A DNA stretch of 64,000 nucleotides, taken from assembly GCF_053078305.1 (NCBI RefSeq), contig NZ_CP166879.1. One strand, written 5' to 3'. Shown one piece after another: positions 25,374 to 60,843 of this stretch (its first letter is position 1; each line of letters begins with the position of its first letter). The notes under the pieces are model-generated. The model saw nothing but the letters and a program-made list of their open reading frames with translations, made no database searches and was not told the origin of the DNA. The position numbers and the translations under genes were made by a program.

Positions 25374-25419
25374 CCGAATTTCGATTAACGCTCAGTCTCT
25401 GACTGAGAAAACTGGAAGC

Positions 25420-58050: not shown

Positions 58051-59208
58051 TTATTGTCCTGCGAGTTGCTGAAGGGCTGTGATGACACGGTCGGCATCGG
58101 CGGTAGTCATATCCGGGAACAGCGGCAACGAACAGATGCGTTCGCTATTCCATTCGGTATTCGGTAACGACAGCGTGGGAAAACGCTCGCGATAATATTT
58201 TTGTGTGTGAGCGGCGCGGAAATGTAACCCGGTACCAATACCTCTTTCTTTTAACGCTTCCATCAACGCATTTCGACTGATACCACAACGTTGTTCATCG
58301 ACACGAATAATAAACAGATGCCAGGCGTGAACGTGCGACCAGGCGGGAAGGCTTAATGGCTGAAAGGGGAGAGCTGCCAGTGCTTGCTGATATTGCTGGG
58401 CAATTTCGCGCCGACGGGTGTTGAGGTGCTCTAATTTAGCTAACTGTGTCAGGGCAATCGCGGCGTTAATATCGGTCAGATTGTACTTATAGCCCGGTGT
58501 TAAGACTTCAGCCTGCGGTGCACGGCCCCAGGTTTGTCTGTCATAGGCATCGACACCCAGACCGTGAAATTTCAGCATCCGTAGCTGGCGGGCAAGATTT
58601 TCATTATCAGTAACAATCAGGCCACCTTCCGCACAGGTAATATTTTTGATGGCGTGAAACGAAAAAATAGCGGTACCTTTTGCGCCAATATGTCGCCCTT
58701 TGTAATACGTACCGACGGCATGGGCTGCATCTTCGATAACTGCGATGCCGTAACGTTCGCCAATGGCGCGAATGGCGTTAATATCTGCTGGCGCACCGGC
58801 ATAATGCACCGGAATGATGGCTTTAGTGCGTGGCGTAATGGCTGATTCGATCGCTTCAGGCGTGACCATCAGCGTATCGCGATCGACATCCACCATTACC
58901 GGCGTTGCACCCTGCAAGGAAATCATATTGAGGGTTGAAACCCAGGTCAGGGAAGGCGTAATCACTTCATCGCCCTTGCCAATTTCCAACGCCATTAGCG
59001 TGATATGCATTCCGGCGGTGGCTGAACTGACCGCGATGGCATGCTGATTTCCTGTCAACTGGCAAAAGGCTTGTTCAAGCGCCTGATTCTTCGGACCGGT
59101 TGTGATCCAACCGGATTCGAGAACCTCTTTAACTGCAGCGAGTTCCTCCACGCCCATTGCTGGTCGCGAAAAAGGCAAAAATTCTGACATTGCTTTTCCT
59201 TCCGCCAT
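58051..59208 (-). CDS. arnB: UDP-4-amino-4-deoxy-L-arabinose aminotransferase ArnB (start uncertain: 59190, 59208 or 59223)
   Basis: DegT/ArnB-type PLP aminotransferase; ORF in track 58051..59223. Confidence 0.9.
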
Positions 59209-59288
59209 TGAATACCTGTCCACTTATATTTTCTATAAAGAGTGTTGTGTATATTTTGCCATTTGGAGCGAAATTTTAAGGATAGAAT

Positions 59289-59305
59289 ATTAACTTAACC
59301 TTAAG
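59289..59305 (-). promoter_or_regulatory. Candidate PmrA (BasR) box upstream of arnB
   Basis: Minus strand reads CTTAAG-gttaa-GTTAAT, matching YTTAAK-N5-YTTAAK direct-repeat consensus in 11 of 12 positions; 81-97 bp upstream of arnB ATG. Confidence 0.5.
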
Positions 59306-59497
59306 AAACTAATATTAGACGTAAATATTGAAATTTTTATATTTTTTCTTATTTAGGCTTTGCATTTGGCAAAATTTTGAGGCATTTTGCCAGCATCGCA
59401 GGATTTTTAATATTACACCAACTGCTAATTATCGCCAGAAATGTCGCTCAATTTCACGGTAATTGTCTGGTTGCGCTTGTCTATAGGTGGAGTTTAC

Positions 59498-60100
59498 GTG
59501 TTAGCTTTTTGCCGCTCTTCGTTGAAGTCAAAAAAATATTTCATCATTTTACTGGCGCTCGCTGCAATTGCCGGACTGGGTACTCATGCCGCCTGGAGTA
59601 GCAATGGTTTGCCACGTATCGACAATAAAACACTGGCCAGACTGGCACAGCAGCACCCGGTTGTCGTTTTGTTTCGCCATGCTGAACGTTGCGATCGTTC
59701 AACCAATCAATGCTTGTCAGATAAAACAGGTATTACGGTCAAAGGTACCCAGGATGCCCGAGAACTGGGCAACGCTTTTAGTGCTGATATCCCTGATTTC
59801 GATCTCTATTCCAGTAATACCGTCCGGACCATTCAGTCGGCGACCTGGTTTTCAGCGGGTAAAAAATTGACGGTAGATAAACGACTTCTTCAGTGCGGTA
59901 ATGAGATTTATAGTGCAATTAAGGACTTACAAAGCAAAGCGCCTGATAAAAATATCGTTATTTTCACCCATAATCATTGCCTGACATATATTGCTAAAGA
60001 TAAGCGTGATGCGACATTTAAACCTGATTATCTGGATGGTTTAGTCATGCATGTGGAAAAAGGCAAAGTTTATCTGGATGGGGAATTCGTTAACCACTAA
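59498..60100 (+). CDS. ais: Lipopolysaccharide core heptose(II)-phosphate phosphatase Ais (GTG start)
   Basis: ORF 59441..60100; start placed at GTG (MLAFCRSS…) by recall; signal-like N-terminus, histidine-phosphatase RHAER motif; divergent from arnB. Confidence 0.85.
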
Positions 60101-60564: not shown

Positions 60565-60843
60565 AGGGGTATTCCTTATAAATAAATAGAAACCATGAGA
60601 ATACGGTAACTCAGAAATATGTGAAAGTGACAGTAATCTCTTTTGCGATGATAACTGCACTTATTATTATTTTTGTGTGTATCGGTAAAGTGTGTTTATT
60701 TTTTTCGGCGTTTAATTATTTAAGAAGTATTTAGTTACAATAAGTGACTAGATCCCTTTTTTCGCTCATTGAATCCTCTGCGCCAGGCAGTACAATCCCG
60801 CAGCTTTGGGAATTTTGATTAATTGCTTGTGGGAAAGGGGATA

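Follow-up and report, generated by a model that had tools for sequence, protein, structure and literature searches.

RESULTS AND DISCUSSION

A PmrA/BasR box in the ais/arnB intergenic spacer

The 17-mer CTTAAGGTTAAGTTAAT, located on the minus strand at 59305..59289 of the analyzed 64,000-nucleotide stretch of DNA (the window), very probably serves as the operator for phosphorylated BasR (PmrA) at the arnBCADTEF promoter (probability about 0.9). The decisive evidence is that sequence, orientation, and spacing are all conserved between genera. The arnB box is an already known element, noted before in the EPEC arn promoter, and every property of a PmrA box that can be tested from sequence was found in it.

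The window is a part of the Escherichia coli chromosome, and the region in question is the spacer between the divergent genes ais and arnB, with the following features.

58051..59190, minus strand: arnB coding sequence, the first gene of arnBCADTEF, RefSeq start ATG 59190
59264..59268 (about 59266), minus strand: PmrA-dependent transcription start site (TSS) of arnB, predicted from geometry
59273..59278, minus strand: predicted arnB -10 hexamer, TAAAAT, following the box at a distance of exactly 10 nt; TAnnnT at +10 in 72 of 76 species
59289..59305, minus strand: PmrA/BasR box CTTAAG-GTTAA-GTTAAT, from motif match and cross-species conservation; half-site 1 at 59305..59300, half-site 2 at 59294..59289
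59360..59365, plus strand: candidate ais -35 hexamer TTGCAT, part of TTGCnn-17-CATTTT conserved in ais loci
59383..59388, plus strand: candidate ais -10 hexamer CATTTT; predicted TSS at about 59395, predicted leader of about 100 nt
59486..59492, plus strand: ais Shine-Dalgarno sequence GGTGGAG, 5 nt 5' of GTG 59498, read from the sequence and kept within Escherichia
59498..60100, plus strand: ais (pmrG) coding sequence, start GTG 59498, encoding the LPS core heptose(II)-phosphate phosphatase

By the RefSeq gene starts, the ais/arnB spacer comprises positions 59191-59497. Alternative arnB starts are the ATG at 59208 in the K-12 annotation and the GTG at 59223 of the longest open reading frame. 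A preliminary description of this DNA had outlined a divergent arnB/ais control region at 59224-59497; its divergent layout stood, and its left edge, which follows the GTG of the longest open reading frame, had to be given up for the RefSeq ATG at 59190. The claim made there that a minus-strand 17-mer upstream of arnB fits the PmrA direct-repeat consensus proved accurate in both sequence and place, 98 nt upstream of the RefSeq arnB ATG.

The G+C content of the spacer is 33%, compared to 51% for the whole window. A search of positions 59100-59600 with Rfam covariance models gave no match at E ≤ 1, and the sole match in the window at the Rfam gathering score was the nuoG RNA motif (RF01748) at 25376-25418 on the plus strand, with 50.3 bits. 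In published TSS profiling of K-12, a start is given 691 nt upstream of arnB (NC_000913.2, 2363241, plus strand of that record). It corresponds to approximately 59899 on the minus strand of the window, has a TATAAAT motif in front of it, and is antisense to the ais coding sequence, within which it lies.

The box consists of two direct-repeat hexamers separated by a 5-bp spacer, giving a period of 11 bp. Compared to the strict pattern YTTAAK-N5-YTTAAK it contains one mismatch, a G at position 1 of hexamer 2, and it fits the form reported for verified Salmonella PmrA boxes, CTTAAG-N5-XTTAAT, with zero mismatches. The strict pattern with one mismatch allowed gave 8 matches in 64 kb versus 3.05 expected, so the motif match by itself is weak evidence and not significant. 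When the reported Salmonella form was generalized to CTTAAK-N5-NTTAAK, the arnB box was the single match with zero mismatches in the window (0.09 expected).

One of the other box-like sequences, TTTAAGAAGTATTTAGT at 60719-60735 on the plus strand upstream of yfaZ, has one mismatch and was rejected as a chance match: its first half lacks conservation in relatives, and no gap separates it from an adjoining TACAAT -10 hexamer. Published TSS data give yfaZ starts at 97 and 41 nt before the gene; a conserved TTGAAT-16-TACAAT promoter serves the one at 41 nt.

Conservation of the box across genera and within E. coli

The arnB loci compared numbered 81, namely the window and 80 species-level genomes. 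A box with at most one mismatch, on the arnB strand and in the same orientation, was present upstream of arnB in 76 of the 81 loci, versus a mean of 3.6 and a maximum of 9 loci with shuffled sequences. The T-T-A-A cores were invariant across the 76 species with the box, and position 1 of hexamer 2, where the E. coli box has its sole deviation, was occupied by any base. In 72 of these 76 species, a TAnnnT hexamer started exactly 10 nt after the box; at any other offset from 5 to 15, such a hexamer was found in 0-1 species each. Within E. coli, 5230 of 5426 complete genomes share the 40-bp core comprising the box and the -10 hexamer with 100% identity; the surrounding 401-nt region was at least 99% identical in just 917 of 5417 genomes.

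The predicted arnB promoter and the action of the box

BasR (PmrA) is a response regulator of the OmpR/PhoB family. At arnB, there is no separate -35 hexamer, and the box occupies its place. The same geometry is known from the pho box promoters of PhoB, e.g., pstS, where the box replaces the -35 hexamer and 10 bp separate its end from the -10 hexamer. PhoB and BasR have in common the family, the 11-bp repeat period, and this box/-10 arrangement; their half-site sequences and sensing signals differ.

We propose that a BasR dimer would bind both direct-repeat hexamers head to tail, as Klebsiella PmrA does, on a box that would stand in for the -35 hexamer and end exactly 10 bp upstream of TAAAAT. 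Bound BasR would recruit sigma-70 RNA polymerase to this promoter lacking a -35. In response to Fe3+, Al3+, or mild acid sensed by BasS, the modification of lipid A with 4-amino-4-deoxy-L-arabinose (Ara4N) would thereby be switched on. Both BasR binding to exactly this E. coli DNA and the position of the TSS are what we infer from the sequence. With the TSS at about 59266, approximately 7 nt after the -10 hexamer, the box would extend from about -39 to -23, which agrees with the Klebsiella footprint reaching -22, and the leader would be about 75 nt long. In TSS data from non-inducing growth (Kim 2012), no TSS was present at the PmrA-dependent promoters of arnB or ais.

Activation through BasR is in line with published genetics. 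In K-12, arnB-lacZ expression was raised 31- to 72-fold by BasS A20D, and similarly by BasR G53V. In serum, a joint decrease of arn, ais, eptA (yjdB), and ugd has been reported, with the arn operon listed under BasR, and both arnB (pbgP) and ais (pmrG) are described in the literature as PmrA-activated in E. coli. A PmrA consensus "with a slight modification" was pointed out in the arn regulatory region in the 2023 EPEC study.

Relation to footprinted PmrA boxes

Footprinted PmrA sites, named in the preliminary description as the standard for comparison, agreed with its reading. The Klebsiella pneumoniae pbgP locus (L037) carries CTTAATATTATCCTAAG, identical to the published DNase-footprinted box TCTTAATATTATCCTAAGC, and the Salmonella box (L014) aligns column for column with the box of the window. 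Judged by these alignments, the E. coli box is positionally orthologous to the footprinted PmrA boxes.

Salmonella enterica pbgP (pmrH/arnB) has the same gene pair in the same divergent pmrG-pbgP layout as E. coli. Its box CTTAATGTTAATTTAAT has the same orientation, the same distance of 98 nt to the arnB ATG, and likewise TAnnnT at +10. Half-site 1 ends with T in Salmonella and with G in E. coli, half-site 2 starts with T instead of G, and the distance from the box to the ais -35 hexamer is 44 bp compared to 54 bp in E. coli; the ais-side element reads TTGCTT-17-CATTTT in Salmonella.

In Klebsiella pneumoniae, box1 of pbgP, CTTAAT-ATTAT-CCTAAG, likewise consists of two hexamers with a 5-bp spacer and has its -10 hexamer at +10. 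It was footprinted with PmrA by DNase and characterized by NMR titration and fluorescence polarization; full-length PmrA, once activated, occupies the two half-sites head to tail, and the footprint extends down to -22. Unlike E. coli, Klebsiella has no adjacent ais gene, its box lies 154 nt from the ATG, and it possesses an extra PhoP box and a second promoter, at which weakly bound PmrA half-boxes have been reported. Direct control by PhoP via a PhoP box has been described for pbgP in Klebsiella and Yersinia. Upstream of E. coli arnB, no PhoP box of the form (T/G)GTTTA-N5-(T/G)GTTTA was found, the best match having 3 mismatches and overlapping the ais ribosome-binding site; this agrees with a published statement that E. 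coli arn lacks a PhoP box.

A candidate ais core promoter without a PmrA box of its own

The preliminary description had found no equally good box for ais, and this was borne out. The only spacer site with at most two mismatches on the ais strand was the arnB box read backwards, which is possible because TTAA is self-complementary. The same holds across nine ais spacers, in which the reversed arnB box was the only shared site with at most two mismatches, and a search for a second PmrA box with up to three mismatches found nothing conserved. No conserved half-site abutting the ais -35 hexamer was detected in 13 ais loci.

Homologs of ais occur only in Escherichia, Salmonella, some Citrobacter, and Intestinirhabdus, and ais lies alongside arnB in just 5 of the 81 arnB loci (the window and 4 of the 80 fetched genomes). 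The element TTGCnn-17-CATTTT was present in all 13 ais loci, with divergent spacer sequence, and absent from all 76 arnB loci without ais. Since the hexamers are conserved at a fixed 17-bp distance and the sequence between them is free to vary, we consider it a candidate ais core promoter. Each hexamer matches the sigma-70 consensus at three of six positions, so that the candidate promoter would be weak and, therefore, activator-dependent.

Another ais -10 candidate, TAAnnT located 4 nt beyond CTTAAG on the ais strand, was discarded because it was conserved only where arnB is present and was lost in the three arn-less loci inspected (L089, L090, and L091). A perfect 8-bp inverted repeat, GGCAAAAT / ATTTTGCC, at 59368-59375 and 59384-59391 on the plus strand with an 8-nt gap, overlaps the spacer and the -10 hexamer of the candidate ais promoter. 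It is only partly conserved outside E. coli and could be an operator for some factor or a coincidence.

Does one box serve both divergent genes?

That a single BasR box serves both arnB and ais is a tentative reading, to which we assign somewhat less than even odds. Two mechanisms would then operate from one site. At arnB, the box would replace the -35 hexamer; at ais, the same bound BasR would act in reverse orientation on the weak TTGCnn-17-CATTTT element, activating from an upstream position whose center would be about -98 in E. coli and between -77 and -98 in its relatives. The distance from the box to the ais -35 hexamer is 54 bp in E. coli and 33-54 bp across the ais loci. In CRP-dependent divergent gene pairs, too, one site lies near one core promoter and distal to the other, the corresponding positions here being about -31 versus about -77 to -98. 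A head-to-tail dimer of the OmpR family is orientation-dependent, which makes bidirectional use less obvious than with the symmetric CRP dimer, and for the present pair the sharing is what we tentatively infer.

Informative in this respect is the distribution of the box among rearranged loci. Four loci without arn still have the box upstream of ais, those of I. alba (L089; gene order menE-pmrD-ais) and C. rodentium (L091; menE-ais) and the loci L093 and L094, in each case 44 bp upstream of the ais -35 hexamer. It is also retained in C. tructae (L090), where it faces an arnT-like gene, and in the C. freundii complex, where ais is gone, it stays with arnB. Whichever of the two genes survives, the box is thus found next to it, a pattern that suggests use by both. 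The same four loci without arn also keep the arnB-side TAnnnT at +10, for which ais has no need; the retention of the box may, therefore, reflect recent deletion and not selection.

About as likely is a separate or indirect route, in which the box serves arnB only and ais is induced via a degenerate site, indirectly, or from another promoter. The position of the box is compatible with such a route, as it lies 33-54 bp from the ais -35 hexamer in the opposite orientation, and in two lineages its distance, 41 or 46 bp, does not keep helical phase. A phased placement of box and ais promoter was considered and rejected: the distances of 54, 44, and 33 bp looked phased; once 41 and 46 bp were added, the phase over all five distances (33, 41, 44, 46, and 54 bp) was not significant. 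The weakly bound half-boxes at the second Klebsiella pbgP promoter offer a precedent for a degenerate site, and a TTTAAG half-site lies within the conserved ais block in most relatives. This half-site reads, however, TTTGAG in seven E. coli, TTTAGG in C. rodentium and C. amalonaticus, and TTCAGG in I. alba, and it is situated in the spacer between the -35 and -10 hexamers, a repressing position; it was rejected on both grounds. The lack of any other site with at most two mismatches on the ais side of nine loci, as well as the persistence of the box with ais after arn deletion, also speak against use by arnB only.

In the window, the half-site position is 59376-59381 on the plus strand. All seven E. 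coli sampled have TTTGAG there, and the other Escherichia, Salmonella, and Citrobacter R56 have the PmrA-like half-site TTTAAG, which makes this an E. coli-specific A-to-G change in the conserved ais block.

QseB and chance as explanations of the arnB box

A proposal made for EPEC assigns the arnB box a different role, with PmrA blocking RNA polymerase at the arn promoter, QseB being the true activator, and the site being mainly a QseB operator; we regard this as quite improbable for the box described here. QseB~P shifts a 60-bp electrophoretic mobility shift assay (EMSA) fragment that contains the box and is identical to the window sequence except for one base (2023 EPEC study), and arnB is constitutively upregulated in a pmrA qseC double mutant. 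QseB is, however, a close paralog, and a role as the normal regulator does not follow from cross-binding seen in a mutant background. With BasS or BasR constitutively active, arnB-lacZ expression in K-12 increases 31- to 72-fold, a box 10 bp upstream of a -10 hexamer without a -35 is the activating arrangement of the PhoB type and was found in 72 of 76 species, and the orthologous Salmonella and Klebsiella boxes are activating PmrA sites. The geometry and the K-12 reporter data thus argue against blocking as the normal role of PmrA.

At 59420-59435 on the minus strand, GCGATAATTAGCAGTT fits the published QseB consensus GYRACAATWA-N4-TT with one mismatch. This match falls within the predicted ais leader and is separate from the published QseB EMSA fragment.

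A chance match without a regulatory role in an AT-rich spacer (33% G+C versus 51% in the window), for which the excess of one-mismatch strict-consensus matches (8 versus 3 expected, the yfaZ one not being conserved) could be cited, is extremely unlikely, as it is contradicted by the sequence, orientation, and 10-bp spacing kept across genera and by the near-invariance of the box within E. coli.

Rearranged loci

In I. alba (L089, at about 2330-2350), C. rodentium (L091, at about 2380-2400), L093, and L094, an intact arnB-type promoter was left at a locus from which the whole arn operon has been lost. This leftover promoter points antisense into pmrD or menE; it could drive an orphan PmrA-dependent antisense or short transcript, or it could be a scar of a recent deletion. 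In C. tructae (L090), arnBCADTEF is replaced by a single gene at 820-2280 on the minus strand encoding a 486-aa ArnT-like glycosyltransferase of the PMT family, which diverges from ais behind the conserved PmrA box and -10 hexamer. In C. amalonaticus (L088), the arnB leader is interrupted between promoter and gene by an insertion of about 200 bp at approximately 1995-2195, which carries a called open reading frame of 66 aa. The inserted sequence (…GAGTCCCCTGGAGCGTACATGAGTACGTGACTGGGGTGAGCG…) appears similar to an ERIC/IRU repeat.

Significance

Among the chromosomal routes to polymyxin/colistin resistance in enterobacteria, the arn operon is the main one, and the PmrA box is its on-switch, a role that is textbook knowledge for Salmonella and Klebsiella and already noted for E. 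coli. The modest additions of the present work are the exact 10-bp spacing between the box and the -10 hexamer across genera (72 species), the persistence of the box with ais in lineages without arn, and the candidate ais core promoter. These additions offer a testable design for the question of whether two divergent promoters can share a single OmpR-family site. If true, the dual use of the box would explain why it survives upstream of ais in lineages with arn deleted, i.e., C. rodentium, Intestinirhabdus alba, and two other loci.
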